A stretch of DNA of 64,000 bases, taken from contig CM059432.1 in the NCBI GenBank assembly GCA_030390025.1, positions 76,510,001-76,574,000 of the forward strand. The letters run 5' to 3'. Shown piece by piece: positions 15,120 to 62,467 of the stretch. Position numbers and translations under genes: made by a program. Position 1 is the first letter of the stretch; each line of letters starts with the position of its first letter. Under the pieces are notes generated by a model. The model was given only the letters and a program-made list of their open reading frames with translations. It was not told where the DNA came from and made no database searches. This stretch comes from Squalus acanthias. Lineage: Eukaryota.

Positions 15120-17146
15120 ATGACTGCTGCAAGATCGAAGGCTGCTCCTAGATTTGATGCATACCTTGGCTGCAGTGTGTACCATCTACAAGATGCACTG
15201 CAGCAACTCGCCAAGGCTTCCTCGGCAGCACCTCCCAAACCCGCGACCTCTACCACCTAGAAGGACAAGGGCAGCAGGCGCATGGGAACACCACCACCTC
15301 CAAGTTCCCCTCCAAGTCACACACCATCCTGACTTGGAAGTATATCGCCGTTCCTTCATCGTCGCTGGGTCAAAATCCTGGAACTCCCTCCCTAACAGCA
15401 CTGTGGGAGTACCTTCACCTCACGGACTGCAGCGGTTCAAGAAGGCGGCTCACCACCACCTTCTCAAGGGCAATTAGGGATGGGCAATAAATGCTGGCCT
15501 TGCCAGCGACACCCACATCCCATGAAAACGAATAAAAAAAACTCCCTCCATTCTCTTGTGGAGGGAGTAAGAAGGCTCAGGGATATTCTGTTCCCTCTCG
15601 ATGGCCGAAGGAAGCCTCCTCAGCAGACAAAGGCAGCCTGGCTGCAAATTGCTGAGGAGGTAAGCTCAAGGTTGGTGTGCACACCCACCTGGGTGCAGTG
15701 CCGAAAAAGGTACAATGATCTGCTACGCTCAGCAAAAGTGAGTATCACATCACACTTACCTTCTATCTGCCTCCCATCTGTTCTCATCACCAGCACTCAG
15801 CATTGTCAACCTACTCCTCCACATCCCAACTTACCCTTACTTCCCTTGCACCCTTACCTATCCCTCTCTATGTACAGAATCACTTCACCATCCTACTATG
15901 CACCCCTCACACTTGTTCTCACTGTTATGCAATGACAATAACTAACAAGGCACAGGGAAGCACTTTGGTTTTGGCACCTCACTCCATCTTTGTCTCCCTC
16001 TGAGCTTCTATGTTATGGAATCTTTACACTCATTCCATCAATCTCACTGAAACTCTACTTTTGTCCCTCATTACAGGAAAAGAGAGCCCGCAATAAGAGG
16101 GAGAGAGCGAGGACAGGTGGAGGCCCACCATCACTCACAACTTTAACAAATGCTGAGGAGGCTGCTCTCGACATAGTCGGAGGTACAGAGGAGTTGGAAG
16201 TGGGGGATGGAGAGACGGGCACAGTCGAGTAAGCTGGTGACAGAATAGCTTTGCAACCCTCATTAAGATTTCATGAGTGACTGAAATGGCATCTGATGTT
16301 CATACAGATTGAGTTCTGATCATCTGCACAATAGGATGTTTCTGCAACCTAAATATCACATGTCTAACTCATGCCTTTACTCCCCCACAGGACAATCGAG
16401 AGCCCTCCTCCCCACTGTCCAGGAGGAAGAGTCAGACGACTCCTCAGAGGAACCTGCAGCCTCTGAGGGAGCAGCGTCACCAGAACTCAGCGCATCCAGC
16501 ACCAGCGCAGATACGCACACCTCGGTGGGTCCTTCGCGACATAGAGTAGTGTTATCACCTGGTGTATCACAGCTCACAAGTGAGCATCAGCAGATGGTGG
16601 AGACAGTGACAGCAGTGGAGAGTCCTCGTCGGAGGTTGCAGGATGCTCCCAGCTCTGCTCAGCTGCATGTAGACGCCGTGCCTCTGGGACCATCCAGAAA
16701 GGTAACTGCGAGTGTGCAGGGAATGGAGGAGTCCATCTCAAACATGAGCAATGTGGTGGTGCACTCAATGGCGAATGTAGGTGCCGCCATGGAAAGGATG
16801 GCAACCTCCATGGAGGACATAAATCGCCAGACTCAAATGAGCATGGTGACTCTTCTAAATAGATGGTCGGCTATGGAGGATAGATGAGCATCTATTGAGG
16901 AGAGGAACCAGAGATACATGGACATCCCCGTTATGAGGACTGTAAGTACAGAGACGGGTTCTCATGGTCCCACTGATGTGCAGCAAGGTGCTCTCCAGCC
17001 ACTTGCTAGCAGTGAAGTGCGGGTGACCCATGAGAGGGATGTTGGTGGTCATAAGCAAGGAAGTGTGGGCTCCTCTCCAAGCGCTCACACGACCATGCCA
17101 CAGCGGAGCCCCAGATGCCTCACCGAACTGGGATGGCCGTCTCAGC
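15120..17146 (+). pseudogene. Harbinger Myb/SANT-like DNA-binding protein gene, 3 exons, disrupted
   Basis: Exon 1 15120-15737 (MTAARSKAAPRF..AWLQIAEEV..TWVQCRKRYNDL, donor GTGAGT); exon 2 from 16077 (EKRARNKRERARTGGG); exon 3 from 16391. LINE insertion in exon 1 and premature stops. Confidence 0.85.
15160..15540 (+). mobile_element. 3' fragment of family-B CR1-group LINE
   Basis: Near-identical to 38810-39186; ends in GCTGGCCTTGCCAGC stem-loop and A-rich tail; splits Myb exon 1. Confidence 0.92.
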
Positions 17147-26658: not shown

Positions 26659-27908
26659 ATGGATGCTGTTTATACTGTCTCACCTTGGTCCTCAGAATCT
26701 GACCACGATGAGTCCCAAGACCAGCAGCATCAGGCACACCAGCAGCACCAACAACACCAACTAACCTTCTCCTCAACGCCCTGATGCTCCACAGGACAGA
26801 GGCCATCAGCACAGGGCTGCACCGCGCCGAAGGCAATACCCCCAACACAGGGTATACAGGCAGAAGATGAGCTTCCTCAACATGACTGAGCAGCAGTGCC
26901 AAAGGAGGCTCAGCCTATCGTGCCAGGTCATCACAAACATTTGCACATTGCTGGAGGAAGACCTGCAGCCCAGAGCAGTGGGTGGACACACCTTACCAGT
27001 GGCTGTCAAAGTCTCCAGCACCCTCAACTTCTTCGCCTCAGGCTCCTTCCAGGGATCTGCAGCAGACATTTGCAGCATCTCACAGTCAGCTGCCCACAGA
27101 TGCATCACACAGGTCACCAATGCCCTGTTTGACAAGTCAGCCAATTATATCAACTTTGCCACTGATGAAGCCAGTGTTACTGAGTGGGCGATCGGCTTTG
27201 CCACTCTGGCTGGCTTCCCATGGGTGCAGGGTGTCATCGACTGCACACATGTGGCCATCAGGGCACCCCATCACCACCCAGGAGTATTTGTGAACCGCAA
27301 AGGCTTCCACTCCCTGAATGTGCAGCTGGTCTGCAACCATAGGAAGATCATTATGCATGTGTGCGCCAAATTCCCTGGCAGCTGTCATGACTCTTTTGTG
27401 CTGCACCAGTCCACCCTCCCTCAACTCTTCGCAACTCCAAACAGACTTTCTGGCTGGCTGCTTGGAGGCAAGGGCTATCCATTGAAGACGTGGCTCATGA
27501 CACCCTTGAGGAGGCCAAGTGCTGAGGCCGAGGAGAGATATAATGAAAGTTACATCTCCACCAGATGTGTCATAGAGCAGAAATAGGCATGCTCAAAATG
27601 CAATTCAGATGCTTGACAGATCTGGAGGAGCCCTTCAGTATGCACCAGCCAGGATCTCCAGAATTGTTGTGGTCTGCTGCGCCCTGCACAACATAGTGCA
27701 GCAGTGAGGATTAGCGCTGCATGAGGGGCAAGGCACTGAACGCACCGCCTCTTCAGAGGAGGAGGAGCAGGAGGAGGAGGAGGACGAGCAGTTGGAAGAC
27801 GAGGAGGAGCAGGAGCTGTAGGAACCTGCAGAGCAGATCCCACCAGCACTCAAGCACATTGCTGCCTGGGAAGCCAGGGATGGCTTCATCATGGCCAGAT
27901 TTACTTAA
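26659..27908 (+). pseudogene. Harbinger DDE transposase (HARBI1-like family)
   Basis: ORF 26867-27586: [30 protein letters not shown] (second catalytic D changed to G), VIEQ; frameshift near 27580; acidic C-terminus. Confidence 0.92.
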
Positions 27909-31181: not shown

Positions 31182-32315
31182 GCAAAACCTGTCAGAGCCT
31201 CCTGCACTTCTTGCTACACCTCCAGGATCGCCCTCTTCTTGGATGGCCCCCGAGGCTCAGCGTCTGCATGCAGCTGAGCAGAGCTGGGAGTGTCCTGTGC
31301 CCTTCGACGAGCAGTCTCCACTGCTGTCTCTGTCACCACCATCTGCTCTTGCTCGGTTGTGATTTGTGAGACACCAGGTGACAACACTATTCTATCTCGC
31401 GAGGGACCCACCGAGGTGTGCGTTTCTGCTCTGGTGCTGGGTGCGCTTCTGTCTGGTGACGGTGCGCCCTCAGAGGTTGGAGGCTCCTCTGAGGAGTCGT
31501 CTTCCTCTTGTTCCTGGACAGTGGTGGAGGCCCTTGATGATTGTTAGTTGGTATAATTGCACTGGGATGAGGGTGAGTGTGAGGGGTGACTAGTAAGATG
31601 GGGATGTGATAATGTAGATAGAGAGAGAGGGATGGGTGGAGGTGCAAGTATGTTGGTGTGAGTAAGGATGTGCAGGAGAAGGGTTGGGAAAGCAGAGTGA
31701 TGGGGATGTGATGAGAGGCACAGCAGGATGAAGGTGAGTGTGGCTTTGGACTCATCTTTCCTGATCTAACAAGATCGTTGAAGTGTTTGCGGCACTGCGC
31801 CCAGGTCCTCCTGACGATATCCCTGCTATTCACATCCTCTGCTATTTGGAGCCAGGCTCCTTTGCTCTGCTGGCGAGGTCTCTTCCACGCTGCGTGCTCT
31901 GACTCCCTCCACAAGCATATGGAGCGAGTCATCGGAGAACCTAGCTGCCTCTGTACAGTCATCTCTGGTGGTGTGTGCAGCAGTGGAATTATGAAGTGCA
32001 CTGACTGCACACTCCCAGGTGAACCTTCAAATGCAATGTGGCCATGGCTCCTTTACGTATCCCAGCTGAAAACGCGTCATCAATGATGTCACCAGACCCG
32101 CACCTTTTAATTGGGCTGTGTAACGCGCAGGGCAGGCTTAATAGGCGGCATTAATGTAAAGTCGTTCTGTGGAGCAGGATGGAGCCAGCAATGGGCTCGC
32201 GACTCGCCATGCCGACCGCGCACACCAGACCCGCCCAGGTAAAGAAAATTCCAGCCATACAGTCAGCACAATTAGCCATCAATGGCAACTGGGCATCAGG
32301 AAAGTTTAAACATTG

Positions 32316-32587
32316 CCCTCAGTGTAATGCTTCCTGCCCTCAGTGTAATGCTCTCTGCCCTCAGTGTAATGCTCTCTGCCCTCAGTTTAATGCTCTCCGT
32401 ACTCTGCCCTCAGTGTAATGCTCACTGCCCTCAGTTTAATGCTGTCCGTACTCTGTCCTCAATGTGATGCTGTCTGTCCTGATTGTAATGCTCTCTGTAC
32501 TCTGCCCTCACTGTAATGCCCTCCGTACTCTGACCTCAGTGTAATGCTCTCTGTATTCTGCTCTCAGTGTAATGCCCTTTGCCCTCA
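32316..32587 (+). repeat. Minisatellite, left (diverged) part
   Basis: Units CCCTCAGTGTAATGCTCTCTG(TACTCTG), 21/28 bp. Confidence 0.9.
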
Positions 32588-32594
32588 GGAACAG

Positions 32595-32671
32595 TAGCAT
32601 AGTGGTAATGTCAATGAGCTAGTAATTCAGTAGGCCTGGACTAATGATCCAGAAACATGAGTTCAAAATCC
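32595..32671 (+). promoter_or_regulatory. Type-2 internal RNA polymerase III promoter (A and B box)
   Basis: A box TAGCATAGTGG (32595-32605) fits TRGCNNAGTGG; B box GTTCAAAATCC (32661-32671) has one extra A relative to GTTCRANNC. Confidence 0.8.
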
Positions 32672-34365
32672 CACCACGGCAGCTGGGGAATTTAAATTCA
32701 GTTAATTAAATAAATCTGGAATAAAAAGCTAGTATCAGTAATGGTAACCATGAAACTATCGGATTGTTGTAAAAACCAATCAGGTTCACTAATGTCCTGT
32801 AGGGAAGGAAATCTGCCGTCCTTACCTGGTCTGGCCTATATGAGACTCCAGACCCACAGCAATGTGGTTGACTCTTAAATGCCCGCTGAAATGGCCTGGC
32901 AAGCCACTCAGTTGTAACAAACCGCTACGAAACACAATAAGAAGAATGAAACCAAACGGACCACCCAGCATCGGCGTCGGCACCGGCTACAGACACGGCA
33001 ACGGCACACCCAGCCCACTCGACCCTGCAGAGTCCTCCTCACCAACATCTGGGGACTTGTGCCAAAATTGGGAGAGCTGTCCCACAGACTAGACAAGCAA
33101 CAGCCTGACATAATCATACTCACAGAATCATACCTTTCAGCCAATGTCCCAGACTCCTCCATTACCATCCCTGGGTATATCCTGTCCCACCGGCTGGACA
33201 GACCCACCAGGGGTGGCGGCACAGTGGGATACAGTCGGGAAGGAGTGGCCCTGGAGTCCTCAGGTCAAGCATGGGCAAGAAAACCTGCTGATTGCCACCT
33301 ACCGCCCTCCCTCAGCTGATGAATCAGTACTCCTCCACTTGCAAGGGCACAGGATGTACTTTGGGTGGAGACTTCAATGTCCATCACCAAGAGTGGCTCG
33401 GTGGCATCACGACTGACCGAGCTGGCCGAGTCCTGAAGGACATAATTGCCAGTCTGGGCCTGAGACAGGCGGTGAGAGAACCAACACGAGGGAAAAACCT
33501 ACTTGACCTCGTCCTCACCAATCTGCCTGTCGCAGATGCATCTGTCCATGACAGTATTGGTAGCAGTGATCACCGCACAGTCATTGTGGAGACGAAGTCC
33601 TGTCTTCACACTGAGGACACCCTCCATCATGTTGTGTGGCACTACCACCGTGCCTAATGGGATAGATTCAGAACAGATCTAGCAGCTCAAAGCTGGGCAT
33701 CCATGAGGCGCTGAGGGCCATCAGCAGCAGCAGAATTGTATTCCACCACAATCTGTAACCTCATGGCCCAGCATATCCCTCACTCTACCATTACCCTCAA
33801 GCCAGGGGACCAACCCTGGTTCAATAAGGAGTGTAGAAGAGCATGCCAGGACCAGCACCAGGTGTACCTAAAAATGAAGCTGCAACACAGGATTACATGC
33901 ATGCTAAAAAGCGGAAGCAGCATGCTATAGACAGGGCTAAGCGATCCCACAATCAACGAATCAGATCAAAGCTCTGCAGTCCTGCCACATCCAGTCGTGA
34001 ATGGTGGTGGACCATTAAACAACTAATGGGAGGAGGAGGCTCCAAGAATATCCCCATCCTCAATGACGGTGGAGCCCAGCACGTGTGCAAAAGACAAGGC
34101 TGAAGCGTTTGCAACCATCTTCAGCCAGAAGTGCTGAGTGGATGATCCAGAGCGGCCTCCTCCTGAGCTCCCCACCATCACAGAAACCAATCTTCAGGCA
34201 ATTTGATTCACTCCACGTGATATCAAGAAACGGCTGAGCGCACTGGATACAGCAAAGGCTATGGGCCCCGACAACATCCCGGCTATCATGCTGAAGACTT
34301 GTGCTCCAGAACTAGCTGTGCCTCTAGCCAAGCTGTTCCAGTACAGCTACAACACTGGCATCTAT

Positions 34366-37300
34366 GTGTGTGTGTGCTAGGCCGATGTCTCCAATTTCTT
34401 GGATCCTCTTGCCATTGGACCAAGAAATTGCTCTGTCAAGCCCATGTGGTAGCTGATGTGCAACGGCCACCCCACGTTAAAATAATTCACGCAAAGGCAT
34501 CTTCCACCCTTTTAAATGAAGTTTGGGACCTGGAACGTCAGGACCCTCATGGACAACCCGAACAGTGACAGACCAGAATGCTGTACTGCTATCGTTGCCC
34601 AGGAGCTCAGATGTTTCGACATAGACATCGCCGCCCTAAGCGAGACCCGGTGGGCAGGGGAAGGCCAGCTCAAGGAGCAAGGCGGTGGTTACACCTTCTT
34701 CTACAAAGGCAAACCTGAAGAAGAACACCGCCTCCATGGGGTAGGCTTCGCCATAAAAAATGAGCTAGTTGAACGTCTCAGAGACTCCCCTTGTGGAATA
34801 AATGTATGCCTCATGACTCTACGGCTCACCCTAGCCCGGAACCAGTGCGCTACAGTCATCAGTGCGTACGCCCCAATACTGGAAGCCACAGACGAGACCA
34901 AAGAGGAATTCTACTCCAGCCTCGAACAATCCCTGTCCCGAGTCCCAACAGGTGACAAACTGATCCTCCTTGGCGACTTCAACGCCAGAGTTGGAAAGGA
35001 CACAGACCTCTGGGGAGGTGTGATTGGCAGAGAGTGGGTAGGGAAAGTCAACTCCAACGGCACCCTCCTCCTGACGAAATGCTTAGAACATGGCCTTGTC
35101 ATAACCAACACCTTGTTCCGTCAGAGAGACAAGTAGAAGGCTTCATGGCAACACCCTCGCTCCAAGCACTGGCATCTGCTGGACTACGTCATCGTCCGAG
35201 CGAGGGACCGCAAGGACGTCCGCATCACCCGCGCCATAACAGGAGCTGATGACTGCTGGACAGACCACCGCCTAATCCGCTCTGTCATCTCCATCAACGT
35301 AGCCCCAAAACAGCGGCGGCAACAGAAGCAATGCCACAGGAAAATCAACGCTGGAGCACTCAAAGACCCTGCTAAGAAAGCCCTATTCAGCCTGTGCCTC
35401 ACAAACAACCTGACGACTCCCAGTGATGCAGAGACAGAGAGTGTCCACAGCGCCTGGTCTGCACTCAAGGCCTCCATAATCAGCACCTGTGAAGAGACGC
35501 CCGGTCACTCGACCAGGAAACGCCAAGACTGGTTCTATGAGAACAACTGGGAGATCCAGGAGCTAATAAGCTGCAAGTGCAAGGTATTCCTGATTTGGAA
35601 ACAGTAACAGAACTCGAGAGCAAGAAAGCAGCTCTACAGGCGCTTAAAGGCCGAAGTTCAACAAAAAACTTGCGACCTACAGAACAGATGGTGGGTGGAG
35701 AAAGTGCAGGAGATCCAGCAGCTAGCCGACAACCATGACGTGCGTGGATTCTTTAGCGCAGTCAAGACCACCTATGGCCCAAGCACCCAAGGTCCTACCC
35801 CACTGTGGGCCAAGAACGGAGAGGTACTCATCAAGGACAGAGAGGCAGTCATGCCCGCTGGAAGGAGCACTTAGAAGATCTCCTTAACCGAGACTCTGTC
35901 TTCGACGCAAGTGTCCTCAACTCCATCCCGCAGCATGCTACCCACCACCACCTCAGCACAACCCCAGCCCGGCATGTGGTTGAAAGGCCATCCGACAACT
36001 GAAGAACAACAAGGCCCCAGGAGCAGATGGAATCCCCGCCGAGGCGCTAAAACATGGCGGAGAAGCACTATTGGCATGAATACAAGAACTAATTTCACTT
36101 ATTTGGAAGGAGGAGAGCATGCCAGGGGATCTCAGAGACACTAATCGTGACCATCTTCAAGAAAGGTGACAAGTCCGATAGCGGTAATTAGAGAGGAGTC
36201 TCCCTGCTGTCTGCCATAGGGAAAGTCATCGCAAGAATCCTCCTCAATCGCCTTGTCCCAGTGGCTGAAAAGCTCCTCCCAGAGTCGCAATGTGGATTCC
36301 ACCCACTAAGGGGCACAATGGACATGATCTTCACCGCGCATCAACTACAAGAGAAATGCAGGGTACAGCACCAACCGCTGTACATGGCCTTCTTTGACCT
36401 CACAAAGGCCTTCAACACCATCAACCGTGAGGGATTATGGAGTGTACTCCTCAAATTCGGCTGCCCGCAGAAGTTTGTCACCATCCTCCGCCTGCTTCAT
36501 GACGACATGCAAGCCATGATTCTGACCAACGGATCCACCACAGACCCAATTCACGTATGGACCGGGGTCAAGCAAGGCTGTGTCATCGCACCAACGCTCT
36601 TCTCGATCTTCCTGGCTGCAATGCTCCATCTCACCCTCAGTAAGCTCTCCGCTGGAGTGGAGCTAATCTACAGAACAAACAGGCAACTGTTCAACCTCCG
36701 TCGCCTCCAGTCCAGATCCAAGGTCGTCCCATCCTCTGTCATCGAATTACAATATGCAGATGATGCTTGCATCTGCGCACACTCTGAGGTCAAACTCCAA
36801 ACCATTGTCAACAGCTTCACCGAAGCGTACAAGTGCATGGGCCTTACACTAAACATCCGTAAGACAAAGGTCCTCTACCAACCTGCCCCCCGATTATCAA
36901 AATCTATGACGAGGCCTTGGACAACATGTACCACTTTCCATACCTTGGGAGCCTACTGTCAACAAGGGCAGACGTCGATGACGAAGTCCAACACCGCCTT
37001 CAGTGTACCAGTGCAGCCTTCGGTCGCCTGAAGAAGAGAGTGTTTGAAGACCAGGACCTCAAACCCAGCACCAAGCTCATAGTCTACAGAACAGTAGTGA
37101 TACCCGCCCTCCTGTATGCTTCAGAGACATGGACCATGTACAGCAGGCACCTCAAAGCACTGGAGCGGTACCACCAACGCTGCCTCCGCAAGATCCTGCA
37201 AATCCATTGGCAGGATAGGCGCACCAACGTCAGTGTTCTCGCTCAGGCCAACATCCCCAGCATCGAAGCTTTGACCACGCTCAATCAACTCCGATGGATG

Positions 37301-37734
37301 GGCCACATCATCCGCATGCCCGATATGAAACTCCCAAAACAAGCGCTCTACTTGGAGCTCCGACACGACAAGAGAGCCGCAGGTGGGCAGAAGAAACGCT
37401 TCAAGGACACCCTCAAAGCCTCCTTGAAAAAGTGCAACATCCCCACCGACACCTGAGAATCCCTGGCCCAAGACTGCACAAAGTGGAGGAGAAGCATCCG
37501 GGAAGGCGCCGAACACCTCGAGTCTCTTCACCGGGAGCAAGCGGAAGCCAAGCACAAACAGCGGAAGGAGTGCATGTCAACCCAAGCACCCCATCCACCC
37601 GCCCCTTCAACCACCGTCTGCCCCACCTATGACAGAGACTGTAGGTCCCGCATTGGACTCATCAGTCACCTGAGAACTCATTTTCAGTGTGGAAGCAAGT
37701 CATCCTCGGTTCCGAGGGACTGCCTAAGAAGAAG
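34366..37734 (+). mobile_element. Full-length RTE-clade LINE (decayed)
   Basis: MKFGTWNVRTL APE start at 34516, RT with GVKQGC and QYADD, C-terminal C..C..H..H-like motif, (AAG)n tail, ATCTAT target duplication (34360-65 / 37735-40). Confidence 0.95.
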
Positions 37735-39186
37735 ATCTATCCGACAATGTAGAAAACTGCCCAGGTATGTCCTGTCCACAAAAAGCAGGACAAATCCAAT
37801 CCGGCCAATTATCACCCAATCAGTCTACTCTCAATCATCAGCAAAGTGATGGAAGGTGTCATCGAGAGTGCTAAAAAGCAGCACTTAGTCACAAATATCC
37901 TGCTCACTGATGCCCAGTTTGGGTTCCGCCAAGACCACTCGGCTCCCGACCTCCTTACAGCCTTGGTCCAAACATGGACATAGGAGCTGAATTCCAGAGG
38001 TGAGGTGAGAGTGACTGCCCTTGACATCAAGGCAACATTTGACCGAATATGGCATCAAGGAGTCCTTGTAAAACTGAAGTCAATGGGAATCAGGGGGAAA
38101 TCTCTCCACTGGCTGGAGTCATACCTAGCATAAAGGAAGATGATTGTGGTGGTTGAAGGTCAATCATCACAGCCCCAGGACATTGCTGCAGGAGTTCCTC
38201 AGGGCAGTGTCCTAGGCCCAACCATCTTCAGCTGCTTCATCAATGACCTTCCCTCCAACATAAGGTCAGAAATGGGGATGTTCGCTGATGACTGCACAGT
38301 GTTCAGTGCCATTCGCAACTCCTCAGATAATGTAGCAGTCCAAAGCCCACATGCAACAAGACCTGGACGACGTTCAGGCTTGGGCTGATAAGTGGCAGGT
38401 AACATTCGCGCTACAGAAGTGCCAGGCAATGACTATCTCCAACAAGCGAGAGTCTTACCATCACCCCTTGACATTCAACGGCATTACCATCGCCAAATCC
38501 CCCACCATCAACATCCTGGAGGTCACCATTGACTAGAAACTTAACTGGACCAGCCACATAAATACTGTGGCAACAAGAGCAGGTCAGAGGCTAGGTATTC
38601 TGCAGTGAGTGTCTCACCTCCTGACTCCCCAAAGCCTTTCCACCATCTACAAGGCACAAGCCAGGGGTGTGATGGAATACTCTCCACTTGCCTGGATGAG
38701 TGCATTTCAAACAACACTCAAGAAGCTCGACACCATCCTTGACAAAGCAGCCCACTTGATTGGCACCCCATTCACCACCTTAAACATTCACTCCCTCCAC
38801 CACCAGCTTACCGTGGCTGCAGTGTGTACCATCTACAAGATGCACTGCAGCAACTCGCCAAGGCTTCTTTGGCAACACCACCCAAACCCACGACCTCTTC
38901 CACCTAGAAGGACAAGGGCAGCAGGCACATGGGAACACCACCACCTCCAAGTTCCCTCCAAGTCACATTCTATCCTGACTTAGAAGTATAGCGCTGATCC
39001 TTCATCGTCGCTGGGTCAAAATCCTGGAACTCCCTCCCTAACGGCATTGTGGGAGTAACTTCACCACACGGACTGCAGTGGTTCAAGAAGACGGCTCACT
39101 GCCACCTTCTCAAGGGCAACTAGGGATGGGCAATAAATGCTGGCCTTGCCAGCGATGCCCACATCCCATAAACAAATATTAAAAAA

Positions 39187-40441
39187 GTGTAAAACTCTCT
39201 ATATTCAGCCCTCAGTGTAATGCTCTCTGCCCTCAGTGTAATGCTCTCCGTACTCTGTCCTCCGTGTAAAGCTCTCTGCTCTCAGTGTAATGCTGTCCAT
39301 ACTCTACCCTTAGTGTAAAGCTGTCCTTGCTGTGCCTTCAGTGTAATGCTCTCTGCCGTCAATGTAATGCTTCTGCCCTCAGTGTAATGCTCTCCATACT
39401 CTGCCCTCAGTGTAATGCTCTCTGTACTCTGCCCTCAGTGTAATGCTCTCTGTACTCTGCCCTCAGTGTAATGCTCTCTGTACTCTGCCCTCAGTGTAAT
39501 GCTCTCTGCCCTCAGTGTAATGCTCTCTGTACTCTGCCCTCAGTGTAATGCTCTCTGTACTCTGCCCTCAGTGTAATGCTCTCTGTACTCTGCCCTCAGT
39601 GTAATGCTCTCTGTACTCTGCCCTCAGTGTAATGCTCTCTGTACTCTGCCCTCAGTGTAATGCTCTCTGTACTCTGCCCTCAGTGTAATGCTCTCTGTAC
39701 TCTGCCCTCAGTGTAATGCTCTCTGTACTCTGCCCTCAGTGTAATGCTCTCTGTACTCTGCCCTCAGTGTAATGCTCTCTGTACTCTGCCCCCAGTGTAA
39801 TGCTCTCTGCCCTCAGTGTAATGCTCTCTGTACTCTGCCCTCAGTGTAATGCTCTCTGTACTCTGCCCTCAGTGTAATGCTCTCTGTACTCTGCCCTCAG
39901 TGTAATGCTCTCTGTACTCTGCCCTCAGTGTAATGCTCTCTGCCCTCAGTGTAATGCTCTCTGTACTCTGCCCTCAGTGTAATGCTCTCTGTACTCTGCC
40001 CTCAGTGTAATGCTCTCTGTACTCTGCCCTCAGTGTAATGCTCTCTGTACTCTGCCCTCAGTGTAATGCTCTCTGTACTCTGCCCTCAGTGTAATGCTCT
40101 CTGTACTCTGCCCTCAGTGTAATGCTCTCTGTACTCTGCCCCCAGTGTAATGCTCTCTGCCCTCAGTGTAATGCTCTCTGTACTCTGCCCCCAATGTAAT
40201 GCTCTCTGCCCTCAATGTAATGCTCTCTGTACTCTGCCCTCAGTGTAATGCTCTCTGCCCTCAGTGTAATGCTCTCTGCCCTCAGTGTAATGCTCTCTGT
40301 ACTCTGCCCTCAGTGTAATGCTCTCTGCCCTCAGTGTAATGCTCTCTGCCCTCAGTGTAATGCTCTCTGTACTCTGCCCTCAGTGTAATGCTCTCTGCCC
40401 TCAGTGTAATGCTCTCTGTCCTCAGTGTAATGCTCTCTGTA
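39187..40441 (+). repeat. Minisatellite, right (homogeneous) part
   Basis: Dozens of near-identical 28-bp CCCTCAGTGTAATGCTCTCTGTACTCTG units mixed with 21-bp variants. Confidence 0.97.
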
Positions 40442-43400
40442 CAATCAACCCCTGCAATGATACATTGTAACTTGTTAAATATACTATTTATGGTTACAGT
40501 TAAATAATGAAAGACTTGCTAAAATGTTTTGAAAATTCCCTCTGTTTTAGTAGAGATATAATGCATATGTTTAAACATTTAATATAAGCTTTCAGCTTTT
40601 TCTGCAAATAAAAAAATTTGCGCAGTCATCAGTTAAAAATGGAAGCTTGAGAACAAAATAGATTGTAGCCATCACTGAAGGACTATCCTCAGCTGCAGAA
40701 AATAAACAAACCTCTGTGTATAAAAGCAAAGTAACACATTCTAAAATAATTCTCAAATGCTGCACTCACCCAATGTGCTAAAATTGGATTCAATATTATT
40801 TGTACCTTTTGAAGGAGGCATATATTGTTGATATAATATATAAACAATATAAAAAATGTAAACTATATATACTAAGCTGGTTTGTATAAAGACTTTGCCT
40901 CAATGCTTACTGATGGATCATCATACAAGGAAGCTGAGAGCTTTAACAACATTAAGCATGGTATCATGGGAGTCTCTTGTGTGCGGTTTTATTTGCAGCA
41001 GTCAGGTTAATGAGCCCACCAGCCCACTTGATGTTGAGGGCCTCATAACAAAGAATTCTCTCATTAAACACTCCCTGGCATTGCGTTCGGAAACAAAGTG
41101 ACATTCAAAGTGTTGAATGCCTTTGTGCTAGTTGTTCCTGCCAGGCTGCAGAGCCAGTCATGGCATCGATCCTACAATGTCCTGGCAGCCATCCAGTGAC
41201 ACGCCGGCCTCTCCAGTGTGCAGCGGCATTTGCCAATCTAAGCAGCATCGGTATACAAACAAGCATGGCACACGACGAGCCTGGCGAGCAGCCAATATGG
41301 AGCAGCTGAGTGGGCTGACTTCCTTCTAATTTGTCTGAAATCAAGTCCTCCCCGTTCATTGAATTCTCTTCTTGCCGATTTATTTTCACTTCCACAATGA
41401 AGACAGAAATAGCATTTATTTCCTATCTGGATTTCTAACATTTTGTTCATTAAAACTGCTAGAAACAAAATATTTCCCAGAGTACTACCAAAATCTCTAC
41501 TGCAAGACAAACTTTTCATTAGTGTGACCCCTAAGAGTGTTATCAGCTAACTAGCAGGTGTGTCCCTTTATCACAGTCTTACACACCAAAGCATGACGGG
41601 TAAACCCTTAACTTGTGATTCAGCTCAAGCTTGCATTATTCATGAGATTCAGTGTTTGCAATTCAGGACCAATTTACTAGGAAAGAAATAATTTCACTGA
41701 GGGTTACAAATCCTGCCTTCTTAATAGGAATGTAATGCAGAACTTGAAACATTTTTTTTAAACTTCCAAATCAAATCTTAGTTATTGCACTATAGCCAAG
41801 AGACAACATAATTATTTATCTTAAACTTGGCTTATGAGTAGCAAACTAAACAATCACAAATTCACATAATTTTGCAATTAAAATTTTGTTATATATACCA
41901 ATTGGAAAAAGTTACTATACCATCCATATATATCTGGTAACCTTTGTATTAATAGTCGTAGTATCATCATTAGGGTTAATTTAACCCACATTGTGGCTTC
42001 ACAAAAGTAACTAGTGCAATTTTTATTCAACTGCTCCTGCTTCCTTCAACAACAAACACAGTAAGTGTTGATTTTTTTGGCAATCATTTTATTAATTGTC
42101 ACAAGAATGCCTCCTACAATATTGTATGTTACAATTTTGAAGATTTCCAGTAGTCCCTACACAACCTATGTTTTATTTAACAGGACAATTCTTAATATTT
42201 ATCCATACAAACAGCTTGATATTGAGAGCTCATTTGCACATAGTACTACATTAATAGTATTTGCTGAAGACATTAATTTATCAGAATAACGATGGCAACT
42301 GTGCTCAATCCTGACTAATTCGTTGAATCTCTCATTTCACTTACATTATTGAAAGATGTTCGCCATCATTTTACATCCTCAGATATTATATGCTGAAGTG
42401 AATTATTCTGAATGCTAACATAAATTTAAAAGAAAATTCAAAGCACGTACCAGCATTGAACCAATTGGTAATTCTGAGTTTGCCACATTCTTAGGCCTGG
42501 GGTTACAAGGGTTAACGATTTTTCATGCAGGAAGCCTGCATCTTCCAACAGCTATTTATGGAATCTGCAGAAACAGCTGAACTGACTGCAATGATGTCAT
42601 ACACTGATGGAATGTTCTGTTCCGCAGCACGTTCACAAGCCGCCTGGGTCTCCTGAAGACTTTGCATGCAGTCTGAGCAGCAACACATTATGAAGCTGAG
42701 GCACTAATTCAGCAGCACCAATCAATATCACACTGCTGACTCTCTCCTGATCTCTCACCCCAACAGCATACTGCCGGGAAAGCTCTGTGCCTCACTGACA
42801 GTGAGAGAAAGCTGCCTCGATACAGCTGCTGATTCCACAATCTATCAAGGTTCATTTTTTTTGTGACTAAAACCAGAGAACTGCCGCAATGAAAACAATT
42901 TTGGACGGTCAGTTCCTCGCTCCACTGGCTGTGTATTTGCTTGGCTTCAGCTGTCCACTTGCAGGCCATTTTATACATTTCATTGATTACATAACCTATT
43001 AGTCTGTCTCTTGTACTGGTTCCTTTAAATTATCTGTAGGAAAAGTAGGAACTTCCTCTCCCCTCACATATATTTACTGAGCCTTTGGGTATTTTCACTG
43101 TCCTTAAAAGAACACAGTTGCCTAGCAACTATTATGGTTACCATGGTGAATCCATGTGTAAGCAGCTGCTGCAATCAGCATTAACACCAGGCTCGCAGGC
43201 AAATCATACCGATACATAAGGGAATGTGTAGAGGGTGATTGCCTATATAATGTTACTCATTAAACAGACATTCCACAGTTTATATTTCTCCAGTACAATT
43301 ATATCAATATCATTCTAACACAAAAACAACAGTACTATATTCTTTGCCCATATAGGCTACATTTTAAAATCATTCAAATCAAATGAGCCTAACATGTGTC

Positions 43401-44368: not shown

Positions 44369-45138
44369 TCAGTTTTTAACCACCATCACCATACAGATGC
44401 ATATCACCAAAGCTGTGTCCATCAATAGAGCAGGCCCCTTCCCAATCCATACACAAAACCTGTTCTCAGATATTCCTAGAATACTACAGCACAGAGGGAG
44501 GCCATTTGGCTGATGGAGTCTGCGCTGGCTCTTTCGAAAAGCAATCCTGTTTGTCCCACTCCCCCGCTCTTTCCCCATATCCCTGTAAAATTTTCTCCTA
44601 CAAATATTTATACAATTCCCTTTTGAAAGCTACTATTGAATCTGTTTCCACCACCCTGTCAAGCAGTCCATTCCAAATCCTAACTACTCGCTGCCTAAAA
44701 TTTTTTTCCTCATGTCGCCTCTGCTTCTTTTGTCAATCAACTTAAATCTGTGTTCTCTGGTTATCGACCCTTCAGCCATTGGAAACAGCTTTTCTTTATT
44801 TACTCTATTTAAACCCTTCATGATTTTAAACACCTCAATCAAATCTCCTCTTAGCCTTCTCTGCTCTAAGGAGAACAACCCCAGCTTCTTTTATTTTTGT
44901 TCATTCCTGGGATGTGGACGTTGCTGGCAAGGCCAGCATTTATTGCCCATCCCTAATTGCCCTTGAGAAGGTGGTGGTGAGCCACCTTCTTGAACCACTG
45001 CAGTTCGTGTGGTGAAGGTACTCCCACAGTGCTGTTAGGGAGGGAGCTCCAGGATTTTGACCCAGTGACGAGGAAAGGAACGCCGTCATATTTCCAAGTC
45101 AGGATGGTGTGTAACTTGGAGGGGAACTTACAAGTGAT

Positions 45139-47016
45139 AGACAGGCTAAGTGAGTGGGCAAGACAGGCTAAGTGAGTGGGCAAGAACATGGCAAATGGAA
45201 TATAATGTGGAGAAATGTGAAGTTATCCACTTTGGTAGGAAAAATAGAAAAGCAGAGGATTTTTTAAATGTTGAGAGATTGGGAAATGTTGGTGTTCAGA
45301 GGGACCTGGGTGTCCTTGTACATGAATCACTGAAAGTTAACATGTAGGTACAGCAAGCAAATAGGAAAGCAAATGGCATGTTGGCTTTTATAACAAGAGG
45401 ATTTGAGTATAAGAGTAAAGACGTCTTACTGCAATTATATAGGGCCCTGGTGAGACCACACCTGGAGTATTGTGTATAGTTTTGGTCTCCTTACCTAAAG
45501 AAGGATAGACTTGCCATAGAGGGAGTGTAATGAAGGTTCACCAGACTGGTTTCTGGGATGGGTGGATTGTCCTATGAGGAGAGATTGTGTAGACTAGGTC
45601 TATATTTTTTTCTTAACGCTTATGGGATGTGGGCGTCGCTGTCAAGGCCAGCATTTATTGCCCATCCTAAGTTGCCCTTGAGAAGGTGGTGTTGAGCCAC
45701 CTTCTTGAACCGCTGCAGTCTGTGTGGTGAAGGTACTCCCACAGTGCTGTTAGGGAGGGAGTTCCAGGATTTTGACCCAGTGACGATCAATGATCGGCGA
45801 TATACTTCCAAGTCAGGATGGTGTGTGACTTGGAGGGGAACTTGGAGGTGGTGGTGTTCCCATGTGTCTGCTGCCCTTGTCCTTCTAGGTGGAAGAGGTC
45901 GCAGGTTTGGGAGGTGCTGCCGAAGAAGCCTTGGCGAGTTGCTGCAGTGCATCTTGTAGATGGTACACACTGCAGCCACGGTACGCCGGTGGTGGAGGGA
46001 GTGAATGTTTAAGGTGGTGGATGGGGTGCCGATCAAATGGGCTGCTTTGTCCTGGATGGTGTCGAGCTTCTTGAGTGTTGTTGGAGCTGCACTCATCCAG
46101 GCAAGTGGAGAGTATTCCATCACACTCCTTACTTGTGCCTTGTAGATGGTGGAAAGGCTTTGGGGAGTCAGGAGGTGAGACACTCACCGCAGAATACCTA
46201 GCCTCTGACCTGCTCTTGTTGCCACAGTATTTATGTGGCTGGTCCAGTTAAGATTCTGGTCAATGGTGATACCCCAGGATGTTGATGGTGGGGGATTCGG
46301 CGATGGTAATGCCGTTGAGTGTCAAGGGGAGGTGGTTAGACTCTCGCTTGTTGGAGATAGTCATTGCCTGGCACTTCTGTGGTGTGAATGTTACCTGCCA
46401 CTTATCAGCCCAAGCCTGAACGTCATCCAGGTCTTGTTGCACGCGGGCATGGACTGCTTCATTATCTGAGGAGTTGTGACTGGCGCTGAACAATGTGCAG
46501 TCATCAGCCAACATCCCCATTTCTGACCTTATGTTGGAGGGAAGGTCATTGATGAAGCAACTGAAGATGGTTGGGCCGAGGACACTGCCCTGTATTCTCT
46601 AGAGTTTAGAAGAATGAGAGGTGATCTCATTGAAACATACAAAATTCTTATAGGGCTTGAGAGGGTAGATGCAGGGAGGATATTTCCCCTGACTGGGGAG
46701 TCTAGAACCAGGGGTCACAGTCTCAGAATAGGGGGTCGGCCATTTAAGACTGAGATGAGGAGAAATTTCTTCACTCGGAGGGTGGTGAATCTTTGGAATT
46801 CTGTACCCCAGAGGGCTGTGGAGGCTCAGTCATTGAGCATATTCAAGACAGAGATCAATAGATTTTTGAATATTAAGGGAATCAAGGGATATGGGGATAG
46901 TGCAGGAAAGTGGAGATGAGGTAGAGATCAGCCATGATCTTATTGAATGGCGGAGCAGGCTCAAAGGGTCAAATGGCCTACTCCTGCTCCTATTTCTTAT
47001 GTTCTTATGTTCTTAT
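45139..47016 (+). mobile_element. CR1 family A 3' part, split by a family-B LINE
   Basis: WQMEYNVEKCEVIHFG..; MRGDLIETYKIL..WNS; (GTTCTTAT)n tail. Confidence 0.92.
45607..46592 (-). mobile_element. Family-B LINE 3' fragment
   Basis: ORF 45620-46183 (STIYKAQVRSVMEYSPLAW), 3' stem-loop, TATT duplicated. Confidence 0.92.
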
Positions 47017-49004
47017 GTGATGGTGTCCCCATGCGCCTGCTGCCCTTGTCCTTCTTGGAAATAAAAGTCGTGGGTTTGGGAGGTACTGTTGAAGAAGCCT
47101 TGGTGAGTTACTGCAGTGTATCTTGTAGATGGTACACACTGCTGCCACGGTGCGCTGGTGGTGGAGGGAGTGAATGTTCATAGTGGTGGATGGGGTGCCA
47201 TTTAAGCGGGCTGATTTGTCCTGGATGGTGTCGAGCTTCTTGAGTGTTGTTGGAGCTGCACTCATCCAGGCAAGTGAAGAGTATTTCATCACACTCCTGA
47301 CTTGTGCCTTGTAGATGGTGGAAAGGCTTTGGGGAGTCAGGAGGTGAGACACTCACTACAGAATACCTAGCCTCTGACCTGCTCTTGTTGCCACAGTATT
47401 TATGTGGCTGGTCCAGTTAAGTTTTTGGTCAATGATGACCTCCAGGATGTTGATGGTGGGGGATTCGGCGATGGCAATGCCGTTGAACGTCTAGGGGAGG
47501 TGGTTAGACTCTCGCTTGTTGGAGATAGTCATTGCCTGGCACTTGTGTGGCGCGAATGTTACCTGCCAGTTATCAGCCTAAGTCTGAATGTCGTCCAGGT
47601 TTTGCTGCATGCGGGCATGAATTGCTTCATTATCTGAGGGGCTGTGAATGGAACTAAACACTGTGCAATCATCAGCGAACATCCCCACTTCTAACCTTAT
47701 GATGGAGGGAAGGTCAATGATGAAGCAGCTGAAGATGATTGAGCCTAGGACACTGCCCTGAGGAACTCCTGCAGCGATATCCTGGGACTGTGATGATTGA
47801 CCTCCAACAACCATCTTCCTTTATGCTAGGTATGACTGCAGCCAGTGGAGAACTTTCCCCCTGATTCCCATTGACTTCAATTTTACTTGATGCCAAACTT
47901 GGTCAAATGCTGCCTTGATATCAAGGGCAGTCACTCTCACCTCACCTCTGGAATTCAGCTCTTTTGTCCATGTTTGGACCATGGCTGTAATGAGGTCTGG
48001 AGCTGAGTAGTCCTGGCGGAACCCAAACTGAGCATCAGTGAGCAGGTTATTGGTGAGTAAGTGCCTCTAGATAGCACTGTCGACTACACCTTCCATTACT
48101 TTGCTGATGATTGAGAGTAGACTGATGGAGTGGTAATTGCCTGGATTGGATTTGTCCTGCTTTTTGTGGACAGGACATACCTGGGCAGTTTTCCACATTG
48201 TCGGGTAGATGCCAGTGTTGTAGCTGTACTGGAATAGCTTGGCTAGAGACGCAGCTAGTTCTGGAGCACAAGTCTTCAGCACAATGGCCGGGATGTTGTC
48301 AGGGCCCATAGCCTTTGATGTATCCAGTGCGCTCAGCCGTTTCTTGATATCACGTGGAGTGAATCGAATTGGCTGAAGACTGGCTGCTGTGATGGTGGGG
48401 ACCTCAGGAGGAGGCCGATATGGATCATCCACTCAGCACTTCTGGCTGAAGATGGTTGCAAACGCTTCAGCCTTGTCTTTTCCACTCACTTTCTGGGCGC
48501 CGCCATCATTGAGGATGTGGATCTTCATGGAGCTTCCTCCTCCCATTAGTTGTTTAATGGTCCACCACCATTCACAACTGGCTGTGACAGGACTGCAGAG
48601 CTTTGATCTGATCCATTGATTGTGGGATTGCTTAGCTCTGTCTATAGCATGCTGATTCTGCTGTTTAGCATGCATGTAGTCCTATGTTGCAGCTTCCCCA
48701 GGTTGGCACCTCATTTTTAGGTACGCCTGGTGCTGCTCCTATCATGCTCTTCCTGAACTCCTCATTGACCTAGGGTTTTTCCCCTGGCTTGATGGTAATG
48801 GTAGAGTGAGAGATATGCCGCGCCATGAGATTACAGATTTTGGTGGAATACAATTCTGCTGCTACTGATGGCCCACAGCGCCTCATGGATGCCCAGTTTT
48901 GAGCTGCTAGATCTGTTCTGAATCTATCCCATTCTCCAGTCTATCCATGTAACTGTAATCTCCATCCCTGGAACCATTCTAGTAGTCATTTGTGACTTTG
49001 ATTA

Positions 49005-49206: not shown

Positions 49207-50341
49207 AATGTTGGTGTTCAGAGAGATTTAGGTGTCCAAGTACAAGAAACACAGAGTAAGCATGCAGGTACAGCAAGCAATTAGGAAGGTAACTGGCATG
49301 TTGGCCTTTATTACTAGAGGGTTGGAGTACAAGTGTAAGAAGGGTACGGTAGCATAGTGGTTATGTTACTGGATTAGTAACCCAGAGGCTGGGACTAATA
49401 ATCCAGAGACATGAGTTTAAATCCCACCACGGCAGCTGGGGAATTTAACTTCAGTTAATTAAATAAATTTGGAATTAAAAAGCTGGTATCACTAATGGCA
49501 ACTACCGGATTGTTGGAAAAGCCCAACTGGTTTACTAATGTCCTTTAGGGAAAGAAATCTGGCGTCCTTACCTGGTTTGGCCTATATGTGACTCCAGACC
49601 CACAGCAATGTGGTTGACTCTTAACTGCCCTCTGAAATGGCCTAGCAAGCCACTCAGTTGTAACAAATCGCTATGACAAAGCACTGTGGAACTACATTCA
49701 CCACAAGTACTATAGCTGACCACCACCTTCTCAAGGGAAATTAGGGATAGGCAATAAATACTGGCCTAGCCAGCGATGCCCACATCTTGTGAGTGAATAA
49801 ATTTAAAAAAGAGACTGTGCACAGTTTTGGTTTCCATACCTAAGGAAGAATATACTTGCCTTAGATGCAACAAATGTTCACTAGATTAATTCCTGGGATG
49901 AGAGGGTTGTTCCTCTGAGGAGAGATTGAGTAGATTGGGCCTATACTCTCTGGAGTTTAGAAGAATGAGAGGTGATTTCATTGAAACATTTAAGATTCTG
50001 AGGGGGATTGACAGGATAAATGCTGAGAGGTTGTTTCGCTTGGCTGGAGAGTCTAGAGTTAGGGGGCATAGTCTCAGGATAAGGGGTCGGTCTTTTAAGA
50101 CTGAGATGAGGAGGAATTTCTTCACTCGGAGGGTTGTGAATCTGTGGATGCTCAATTGTCAAGTATATTGAAGACTGAGATAGATAGATTTTTGGACTCT
50201 AGAGGAATCAAGGGATATGGAGATTGGGCAGGAAAGTGGAGTTGAGGTCGAAGATCAGCCATGATTTTATTGAATGGCGGAGCAGGCTCGAGGGGCCGTA
50301 TGGCCTACTCCTGCGCCTAATTCTTATGTTCTTATATTCTT
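49207..50341 (+). mobile_element. CR1 3' fragment containing a SINE
   Basis: ORF 49926-50171 (GLYSLEFRRMRGD), 3' UTR matching 891-980, TTCTTATGTTCTTA tail. Confidence 0.9.
49342..49810 (+). mobile_element. tRNA-derived SINE sharing both ends with the family-B LINE
   Basis: A box 49350-49360, B box 49415-49423; 49343-49676 matches 32588-32930; 49680-49810 matches 39040-39186. Confidence 0.92.
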
Positions 50342-52715: not shown

Positions 52716-54103
52716 GGGCTAAAGGTTCGATTACCCCGAAAACAGACGCGGGGATCGCAATGTGCGATCAATCTGCACCTGTTCTTTCTGATGTAATCTG
52801 GTCATTTACATGATTGCAGCATGCAGCCCAGCACTGAATGTGCTGCTGAGTGGCTGCACGCTCAGCAGGGGGCCCAAGTTCGTGTGAGGCTCACCCCAAT
52901 TAAAACTAGCCTGCACTTATTAAAGCCAGCCTGCACCTCTTAAAGGGGAGGTGCAGTTTGACGAGAGCAGGTGCTGGAAGTCATTCCAGAAGTGAGTTTG
53001 ACCTGGCAAAGAAACAGAATTGGCACAACATGCCAGAGAGACAGCGCCAAGGTTTTCCGACACAGCACTGAAGGCATTAGTGCAGGAGGTGGACAGGAGG
53101 AGAGAGGTCCTGCATCCACAGGGGGCCAGGAGGGCCTCCAGACAGACACTGCAAAGGCAGTGGGAGGAAATAGCCATGGAGGTAAATGACAGTAGTGTTG
53201 CCCGGAGGACTTGGATGGAGTGCCGAAAGAAGTTGAATGACCTCACACGAGTGGTCAAAGCCAATGAATGCATCTTCAAATGCCAGATGTCACCAACTGC
53301 ACCACTAGCCTCACACACTGCTCAATGCACCACACCCCCATCACTCACCTACCAACAATCTCTGTCAAACAGGACTCATACCTAACATTCATAACTTCAC
53401 CACACCCTCACACACTTAGCACTGCTGCAAGCCTCACACCCACATCTCACACCTTGCACACACTGCCAGATATTCAAACATGACTGGCCACATCAACCAA
53501 ACACATTGCACCATACTCACTGACACACTTCCTTCTCTCTTGCAGGAGAAGGTGGCACACAACCACAGGCAACAGAAGCTAACCAGAGGTAAACAGGCGC
53601 ACCTGCATATCCTAGCCCAGATGGAGGAGATGGTGCTTGGCATTATTGGAGTGGCCGTGGCTGAGGCTGTGGCCAGTGGCGTGGTTGAAACCATTGAAGA
53701 TGATGGTATCCTCTACAAACTCACCAAGAGCCAGTAGAAATCAATCAGCAACTAACCTGAAAGCAGGTGTTGATCACTTTAAATAGCACTAGTAGGAGTC
53801 CTTCCTGCTGCTGAACGCTTGTTCAGCTGTGAGAGGTTAAGAGAGGGTGTTAGCTCCAGAATTGAGGTAGAAAATTGCAGCGCTGGTGTCAAATCAGCGT
53901 TGCACACTGATTGACATCATGATCTTTGTATTCTGCATACTTCCGGCCCATGCTCCCTATACCGAAGCAAAGGACCTCACCAAAATGGCGTCTGGCGCAG
54001 CCCACACCAGATGTGTGCACGTGTGGCGCAGATGCCATTTTTGACACAAAACGGCACCCGTAACGTCCAAAAATTGGGCGCTCCGGAGCCAAATTTCTCG
54101 GCC
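52716..54103 (+). mobile_element. Harbinger deletion derivative retaining Myb exons 1-2
   Basis: 53020-53260 APRFSDTALKALV..WEEIA..TWMECRKKLNDL; exon 2 from 53547 (EKVAHN..); right end ATTTCTCGGCC; left TIR and TSD weak. Confidence 0.7.
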
Positions 54104-61207: not shown

Positions 61208-62467
61208 ATGAGGGCTTTACTGCCAGTCCCCTTCGCGCTCGAGTATCTTCAGGAGAGGGAGCGGAGGCAGCGAAGAAGAGGAGAAGATGCTCGCAGAGGG
61301 AGGAGGAGGAGGGCTAAGAGGGCTCTCACAGGAAGCCTTACCCACCTATGGTCGGCAGAGAGCACTTCTCTTATATCCACTTAAGCGAGGAGTAGTCTAT
61401 TAGGAGGCTCCGCTTCAGCAAGGAGATGGTCACAGAACTCTGCCACCTCCTGCAACCAGAACTGCAGCCTCAGAGCAGGGGGACCACGGCTCTCCCAGTA
61501 GCCCTCAAGGTCACTGTGGCGCTCAATTTCTTCACCAGCGGATCCTTCCTGTCTGCAGCAGGAGACATAGCTAACATCGCCCAGTTCGCCGTCTATCGCT
61601 GCATTCAGGAGGTCACAGAGACTCTCTACACCAGGAGAAGGGACTACGTTTTCCTCTCTCTGAGCAGAGAGAAGCAGGATGAGTGCGCATGTGGCTTTGC
61701 CAGGATAGAGGGGTTCCCCATGGTGCAGGGTGCTATCGACAGCATCCACGTGGCTTTGCAGGCGCCGCATAACAATCCTGAGATCTTCCGTAACCACAAA
61801 GGCTACCACTCACTTAATGTGCAGTTGTTGTGCAACCACACCCAGCGCATCCTGATGGTCAATGCCCGCTATCCTGGCAGCAGTCATGATGCCTTCTTCC
61901 TGCGTCAGTCCGGTGTGCCAGCAATCTTCCAGCCACCACATCAAACCCGAGGGTGGCTGCTCGGAGACAAGGGCTATCCGCTCTGCACCTGGCTCATGAA
62001 TCCCTTTCACAACACCAACACGCGTGTCCAGCACTCATACAAGAGAGCCATGCTGCCACCAGGAACATCATCGAGCAGACCATCGGGCTGCTGAAGCAAC
62101 TGTTCCACTGCCTTGACTGCTTGGGAGGAGCCCCCCAGCACTCAGCGGAGCGGGTGTCCTATTTCGTAGTGGCCTGCTGCATGCTTCACAACTTGGCCAT
62201 TATAGAAACATAGAAACATAGAAGATAGGAGCAGGAGTAGGCCATTCGGGTATGAAGGTGCAGCCCTTGCCAGCAGGGATTGTGGGACCACCTCAGGAAG
62301 AGGATGAGGGAGAGGAGGAGGAGGAATAGGAAGATAAAGAGGAAGAGCCAGAGGAGGAGGACGAGGAGGAAGAGGAGGAGGACAAGGAGGAAGGGAGGAG
62401 GCAGGCAGCAAATTTCCCTTCGGCACAGGCTGCCCATGAGTGCCTCATCAGACTCTGATTCCAGTGA
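61208..62467 (+). pseudogene. Harbinger DDE transposase, frameshifted
   Basis: GAIDSIH, NHKGYHSLNVQ, YPGSSHD, LGDKGY, IIEQ; acidic tail; 47-bp CR1 insertion. Confidence 0.92.
62204..62250 (-). mobile_element. 47-bp CR1 extreme 3' end
   Basis: Matches 29147-29193; TAT duplicated (62201-03 / 62251-53). Confidence 0.9.

Follow-up and report, generated by a model that had tools for sequence, protein, structure and literature searches.

A single-ORF LINE with a tRNA-like head

The window (the whole 64-kb stretch of Squalus acanthias DNA that was analysed) contains several copies of a retroposon family, here called family B, whose main copy starts at 32588 on the forward strand and is inserted into a minisatellite. 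The element begins with a tRNA-like head (32588..32671, +) with an A box at 32595-32605 and a B box at 32659-32671, both assigned by consensus patterns. The A box begins 7 nt after the 5' end and the B box another 64 nt downstream, a spacing that exceeds that in most tRNAs, and the B box of this copy has one extra A. This arrangement of the boxes is that of a type 2 Pol III promoter, as in tRNA-derived SINE heads. The head is followed by a body (32672..32930, +), which family B has in common with a SINE at 49343 and which contains one TTGTT at 32764.

The single ORF is divided in two by an insertion. Its first part (32918..34365, +) comprises a basic leader, an endonuclease matching the Exo_endo_phos_2 profile (E=7e-13), a linker and the start of the reverse transcriptase (RT), and is decayed by frameshifts and stops. 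The endonuclease frame opens at 32918, immediately past the stop at 32915-32917, and no in-frame AUG was found from that stop to the first endonuclease strand; the 12 AUGs that precede the endonuclease lie upstream of the frame or out of it, most of them within the body. The element has no ORF1 between the head and the endonuclease. A nested RTE-type LINE (34366..37739, +), flanked by ATCTA repeats at 34361-34365 and 37735-37739 and missing from the other family-B copies, separates this part from the second (37740..39123, +), which contains the remaining RT and the C-terminus and ends with the stop at 39121-39123. The RT matches the RVT_1 profile (E=3e-29, on the copy at 47017), and at 38865 the main copy has one TTCTTT which reads TTCTT in two other copies. 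The 3' UTR (39124..39186, +), also common to the SINE, consists of a stem-loop with AATAAA in its internal loop and then an A-rich tail; the stem-loop has a folding z of -3.5 and none of 200 shuffles folded equally well.

Four other LINE copies are present in the window: an internal piece at 47017..48933 (-) which is 90.8% identical to the main copy, a 5'-truncated copy at 45612..46592 (-, 92.5%) and two short 3' copies at 44886..45129 (-, 85.8%) and 15159..15541 (+, 91.6%). The presence of endonuclease and RT within one ORF fits an APE-type non-LTR retrotransposon (LINE), as do the 5'-truncated copies, the shared 3' end and the A-rich tail. Family B is a LINE of roughly 3.3 kb with a single ORF for endonuclease and reverse transcriptase and a tRNA-like head of SINE type.

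The SINE itself (49343..49810, +) consists of the family-B head and body (49343-49676) fused directly to a piece of about 140 nt from the 3' end of the family. Over the 344 nt of head plus body, its opening 334 nt and 32588-32930 show 86% identity, and the same A/B-box pair is present. This element retains only the 5' and 3' ends of the autonomous LINE, which is the make-up of a bipartite non-autonomous LINE. The Rfam tRNA model scored 13.4 bits on 49349-49428 (E=3), below its gathering score of 29, and in this sub-threshold alignment the D and T arms of the SINE head are in register. The same model had no match on the LINE copy, and a scan of 32400-33200 with Rfam gave one chance match. ARAGORN detected no tRNA, either across the window or among the 60 loci scanned of 80 from related elements.

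Head and ORF across four organisms, and relatives of family B

Part of 32588-34365 is present in 20 of the 24 listed runs, and at least half of its words in 14. Four runs from four organisms (X1, X5, X9 and X17) were compared as assembled contigs, which are silent on polymerase, start and strand; X17 may be RNA. In all four, contigs covered all 30 bins, which include head, junction and ORF, and the same substitutions recurred (among the 40 listed of 132). Loose ends at 32666 (732 in X5 and 616 in X9) correspond to a B box without the extra A, those at 34364/34365 run on into the sequence found at 37740, as in RTE-free copies, and a SINE-type joint was seen at 32934 in X9 (50 loose ends).

A one-off origin of the 32588 copy as a chimera, in which template switching placed a SINE head on a 5'-truncated ordinary LINE of a family with another 5' end, is very unlikely. 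It would agree with the fact that, of the five family-B LINE copies found here, a single one is complete at its 5' end, and with two properties of the contigs: depth falls at 32940-32999 in all four runs, and among the pieces listed none has at least 31 nt on both sides of 32930. However, the junction variants at 32955, 32974 and 32976 recur in every run, with 77-111 contigs each in X1, X5 and X9 and 21-38 in X17, with as many as 45-91 letters left before the contig stops. Moreover, record 1 of X1 spans 32729-32951, single contigs link the body to the ORF interior (32795-33496, 32805-33210 and 32928-33003), and no loose end among those listed occurs before 32935-33000. Head, junction and ORF belong to one family with support that is good but, because of the lacking 31-nt bridge and the low depth, not complete.

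The family-B protein is 67-79% identical to gene models of Heptranchias perlo. It also matches single-ORF proteins of about 930-975 aa with up to 44% identity, several of them on contigs of 3.2-3.8 kb, and proteins of Branchiostoma, crustaceans and insects, identity outside sharks being 28-47%; with the N-terminal 113 aa as query, one protein was retrieved. In an RT tree whose 55 rows were drawn from these homologs and the loci and included no named clade references, family B was sister to a group that includes a Branchiostoma protein (91/84, not firm) and was not RTE-like, and the family-A CR1 elements of the window fell in a separate clade (100/98). This separate clade and the absent ORF1 speak against an assignment of family B to the CR1 clade sensu stricto.

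Among the distant relatives, none of the 32 loci for which both a long ORF and the DNA ahead of it were available showed a head. A relaxed head pattern occurred in 1 of 21 loci and in 3 of 158 window bins, a weak test because the pattern misses the 32588 copy itself, and blastn of head, SINE and tail against the 80 loci gave nothing better than E=0.006. The single-ORF LINEs of the CR1/L2 group from amphioxus, crustaceans and insects resemble family B in their endonuclease-RT protein but differ from it in their ordinary T-run content and in having no detected head where upstream DNA is present.

T clusters and Pol III terminators on the sense strand

The sequence-only reading of this DNA had proposed that family B avoids runs of four T (T4) on its sense strand, and the count on which it rested is correct. 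The forward-strand runs of four or more T nearest to the element are at 32105, 34510, 37681 and 40527; since 34510 and 37681 lie within the nested RTE, the 3,224 nt of 32588-34365 and 37735-39186 contain none, and the first T4 downstream of the element is that at 40527. As had also been read, T4 is absent from the copies near 15160 and 45607 (15159, +, and 45612, -); it is absent too from the short copy at 44886 and from the SINE. The single T4 of the 47017-48933 piece, at 47063-47066, was rightly called copy-specific, as it is missing from the three further copies that align at this place, and all window copies together with the SINE head have one T4 in 7,059 nt. Among the four organisms no listed change to T creates a T4, as judged by eye, nor is there one in the loose-end consensus letters that fill deletions of the 32588 copy; one X17 contig has one T4. 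In contrast, the statement that TTT is common has to be withdrawn: there are 10 exact T3 in the 3,224 nt, and 9 runs of three or more T against 13.8 expected in the coding part.

Taken on its own, the zero count is only marginally beyond chance. Mononucleotide shuffles (1000) expected 4.57 T4 (P=0.008), dinucleotide shuffles 2.25 (P=0.073) and trinucleotide shuffles 0.75 (P=0.41), and the codon-shuffle check that had been proposed, run with a hand-set reading frame, gave a marginal result (2.35 expected under the synonymous null, P=0.058). The family-B protein written in the codon usage of the RTE would have 1.62 T4 (P=0.17), in that of a Penelope-like element 4.15 (P=0.007) and in that of CR1 over 6. 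A regression on 68 related frames, which are those of the 80 loci with a frame of at least 300 aa without N (12 were dropped), predicts 5.1 for family B (P about 0.015), although this is an extrapolation below the T range of those frames. The nested RTE (18.5% T), which serves as composition control for family B (20.6% T), has only two T4 as had been observed, against 2.25 expected. The reading had named a count within compositional expectation as evidence against itself, and the data come close to that: both the dinucleotide and the synonymous null give P=0.06-0.07, and the RTE is almost equally poor in T4. The family-A CR1 elements do have many such runs (11, 3, 5 and 3), but these numbers are at expectation for their composition. 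The T4 count was dropped as a proof in itself, being underpowered.

A wider measure, chosen after inspection of the data, gave a clearer result. Family B has 2 windows in which 4 or more of 5 nt are T, where 14.3 are expected and none of 1000 mononucleotide shuffles was as low, and 1 against 7.5 in the coding part under the synonymous null (P=0.002). Clusters of A, C and G are not depleted and C-rich clusters are in excess. As CpG decay yields T followed by G and could mimic such a deficit, nulls that absorb it were run, and the deficit held: 2 against 9.4 with dinucleotide shuffles (P=0.001) and 1 against 5.8-6.4 when synonymous codons were shuffled within strata set by the following base (P=0.004-0.009). 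The RTE was at expectation (11 against 8.6 and 7 against 6.8-7.4, respectively). The TpT ratio of observed to expected is 0.77 in family B and at least 0.88 in the 68 frames, but it was dropped as a proof of terminator avoidance because CpG decay places T before G and the corrected index is 0.74 for family B and 0.79 for the RTE.

This measure coincides with a terminator set published independently. In the part of the study of Orioli (2011) available to us, human Pol III is partly terminated by T3VT2, T2VT3, T3VT, TVT3 and T2VT2, of which T2VT2 is the weakest class, with T2GT2 almost inactive (PMC3141230). Active classes were taken from that part as T4+, T3VT2/T2VT3, T3VT/TVT3 and T2[AC]T2, with strengths that are those of human and not of shark Pol III. 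Active sites on the family-B sense strand number 1 against 7.9 expected (P=0.001). The controls gave 39 against 35.6 on the antisense strand of family B, 10 against 7.5 in the nested RTE, 29 against 23.0 and 14 against 14.6 in CR1, 5 against 3.8 and 8 against 7.3 in Harbinger, and 23 against 29.4 (P=0.051) and 21 against 22.8 in the Penelope-like element, where T3-containing sites show a milder deficit (18 against 25.3, P=0.017). Just two T-rich sites recur between copies of the window, TTGTT (32764) and TTCTT (38865). As is expected of a Pol III unit, which has no internal terminator on the non-template strand, the 32588 copy has no T4+ and one interrupted run.

The comparison with related families that had been suggested was also made. 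None of the 68 frames lacks T4; on the 4-of-5 measure the ratio of observed to expected is at least 0.73 (median 0.98, synonymous) and at least 0.79 (dinucleotide) in those frames, against 0.13 and 0.21 in family B. The loci L015 and L001, which score best against the close relative P0001 and have 23% T, have 4 and 2 T4 and 14 and 9 T clusters (11.6 and 12.2 expected). The hagfish element CR1-7_EBu has protein motifs that resemble family B by eye and, again by eye, 7 T4+ runs in its coding part (PMC7245038). Among the elements tested the T-cluster deficit is confined to family B, to its sense strand and to T.

An origin of this deficit by chance, through a T content of 20.6%, codon bias, CpG decay and a measure defined after the fact, is improbable. 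It accommodates the T4 count, for which P ranges from 0.06 to 0.41 under three nulls, and the two T4 of the RTE, as well as the absence of a significant deficit under three of seven window definitions (5 of 6, 5 of 7 and 5 of 8; 600 shuffles) and its weakness in the 5' half alone (0 against 2.2, P=0.078; 600 shuffles). Terminator sites in the second and third copies are likewise few without being significantly so (3 against 5.3, P=0.17, and 1 against 2.8, P=0.18). Moreover there is one evolutionary sample, since all copies and the four organisms share one near-identical family sequence; the caution that the copies are not independent was well placed. Chance does not, however, account for a 4-of-5 deficit that holds under the dinucleotide and next-base-stratified nulls, would survive correction for the 11 element rows tested and matches the published terminator set (PMC3141230, as available in part). 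Base composition, which had been offered as part of the cause, fits the similar T4 counts of family B and the equally T-poor RTE; on the wider T-cluster measure the RTE is at expectation and family B is below it.

Probable transcription of family B and its relation to LINEs and SINEs

The tRNA-like promoter and the near absence of T-rich stop signals suggest that this coding element was transcribed by Pol III. Avoidance of Pol III terminators, the explanation first proposed for the missing T4, finds its better argument in the T-cluster deficit combined with the A/B-box head, T4 alone being marginal. We put at roughly 0.55 the probability that the SINE-type head of family B served as the promoter from which Pol III transcribed this LINE family with its single ORF, with polymerase, cap state and start codon as predictions from the DNA. 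TFIIIC would have bound the internal A and B boxes while the family was active, and RNA polymerase III would have read through the element from end to end. Selection may then have removed T4 and interrupted T-runs from the sense strand, since a transcript that ended at such a run would lack the 3' stem-loop, which is presumably needed by the RT. Both this selection and the recognition of the 3' end are inferred, as is the route of translation.

A less probable but serious possibility is that the head is of SINE type and the full-length RNA was nevertheless a Pol II product, started either in the head region or at host promoters further upstream. In that case the boxes would serve only the SINE or short transcripts, and the lack of T clusters would reflect a mutation bias specific to the family or selection against U-rich RNA signals for Pol II pausing, splicing or decay. 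LINEs are regarded as Pol II units in the available part of PMC5786205, a capped RNA would remove the problem of translation, the sense strand is T-poor with a preference for C-ending codons as in the RTE, and the Penelope-like element is also mildly deficient. On the other hand, the RTE, CR1, Harbinger and the 68 related frames are at expectation, the excess of C-rich clusters indicates that pyrimidine tracts as such are tolerated, and the shared sites that survive fall in the two weakest Pol III classes. In addition, the 12 upstream AUGs would impede cap-dependent scanning as well.

Under Pol III transcription, translation is the demanding step, as Pol III RNAs are uncapped and poorly translated. 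An uncapped RNA with 12 AUGs before the ORF would have to be translated by a non-scanning route. An IRES in the body finds no support, as folding there is not unusual (z=-0.30 and -0.03), and the search for a ribozyme or a stable structure in it was negative. According to the accessible part of PMC5814959, R2 is co-transcribed by Pol I and has an HDV-like ribozyme, and cap-independent translation has been proposed for L1Tc of Trypanosoma cruzi. Both are non-LTR elements with RNA that is not normally capped, and they offer a precedent for the translation of family B, but they have no tRNA-type Pol III promoter, whereas family B carries the A/B-box head.

The SINE at 49343 can be explained as family B minus its coding middle. 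The SINE may have arisen from the LINE, or the LINE may have captured the head. Shark tRNA-derived SINEs share their 3' tail with a partner LINE (SINE2); the tail of SacSINE1 (Deu) is like that of L2-2_CM or CR1-4_DR, and HE1 pairs with HER1 (PMC5499810, PMC3747384 and PMC4824008, available in part). The available text of the shark SINE papers describes tail sharing only (these three, PMC10468316 and PMC3531059). Like the 49343 element, shark SINE2s have a tRNA-like head with A/B boxes, a non-coding body and a tail shared with a LINE; however, their head is on the SINE, whereas in family B the LINE itself bears head and body. SacSINE1 and HE1 were compared with family B by description. A Deu/SacSINE1 label for the body is not supported: 32672-32930 has no match by eye to an alignment of about 130 nt, part of the 330-nt vertebrate Deu domain (PMC7245038, Fig. 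S4, available in part), and a 14-nt Deu core motif, with 2 mismatches allowed, occurs nowhere in the window.

Non-autonomous LINE derivatives that have gained a tRNA head are described for Bov-B, Bov-A and Bov-tA and for Vingi-2_ACar and SINE2-1_ACar (PMC4494074 and PMC5786205, available in part), and the available part of the latter has SINE middles supplied only by RTE and Vingi. These derivatives resemble the 49343 SINE in having 5' and 3' parts of a LINE and no ORF, but there the head is found only on the non-autonomous derivative, whereas in family B, which is not RTE-like, it is on the coding element. No description of a coding LINE with a tRNA head was found in the literature by title and abstract, and Repbase or Dfam may hold the family under another name; motifs of the window were absent from the paper texts and supplements searched, save for one chance 10-mer.

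We would give even odds to the wider scenario, in which an autonomous coding family, transcribed as a Pol III unit, multiplied in the genomes of cartilaginous fishes, with a 3.3-kb mRNA purged of canonical and non-canonical terminators, cap-free translation from a non-AUG or internal start and a SINE formed by internal deletion. In the standard division, as given in the available part of PMC5786205, LINEs are coding and transcribed by Pol II or co-transcribed, and SINEs are Pol III units unable to encode protein. Pol III use by family B is plausible and, if true, a LINE that encodes protein and is driven by a tRNA promoter would not fit this division of polymerases and would provide a direct route to a SINE, by deletion of the ORF with both ends kept. 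The pattern of terminator classes is also a sequence test applicable to the consensus of any family. Family B would moreover allow long elongation by Pol III and the translation of uncapped RNA to be studied in a natural case, and would represent a type of retroposon between LINE and SINE with a natural Pol III mRNA.

Insertion site and reading frames of family B

The main copy of family B, a single-ORF LINE, interrupts a 21/28-nt minisatellite (32314-32588 and 39186-40442), and no clear target-site duplication was found for the insertion in this repeat. The frameshifts of this copy are explained by the deletion of three or four short stretches (at 33337, 33877 and 33258-33284), which are present in other copies, as seen in contigs of the sequencing run X17 and of other runs.

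Two features bear on where the endonuclease frame begins. A 76-codon frame (32862-33092, + strand) starts within the body shared with the SINE copy and overlaps the endonuclease frame at an offset of +1; its first 22 codons are likewise open in the SINE copy (49608). This frame may represent either an upstream ORF or the initial part of a frameshifted start. Moreover, the endonuclease frame has an ACG codon at 32927, which corresponds to ATG in the SINE copy and is an alternative candidate start.

The 3' end of family B and the nested RTE

All five copies of the 3' stem-loop (39124-39186 in the main copy) carry AATAAA within the internal loop, and in two of them a second AATAAA lies immediately 5' of the A tail.

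The RTE-type LINE nested in the main copy opens with a TG microsatellite, and its 5' UTR is short (34366-34515). One of its two TTTT runs directly precedes the start codon and the other is close to the 3' end.

Other transposons and gene models

The element at 55212-57700 (- strand), with only a weak RT match in Pfam, is tentatively classed as Penelope-like by a motif. Its T3-containing words among those that terminate human Pol III are in mild deficit (18 observed against 25.3 expected, P=0.017). In addition, decayed Harbinger-type transposons with DDE_Tnp_4 and Myb/SANT genes lie at 26765-27586, 61396-62094, 15396-15935 and 53002-53385.

Two gene models matching the family-B protein, P0075 and P0121, contain an in-frame family-B piece, within an aldo-keto reductase and after a PF06534 domain, respectively. 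These pieces are either exonised copies or annotation artefacts.
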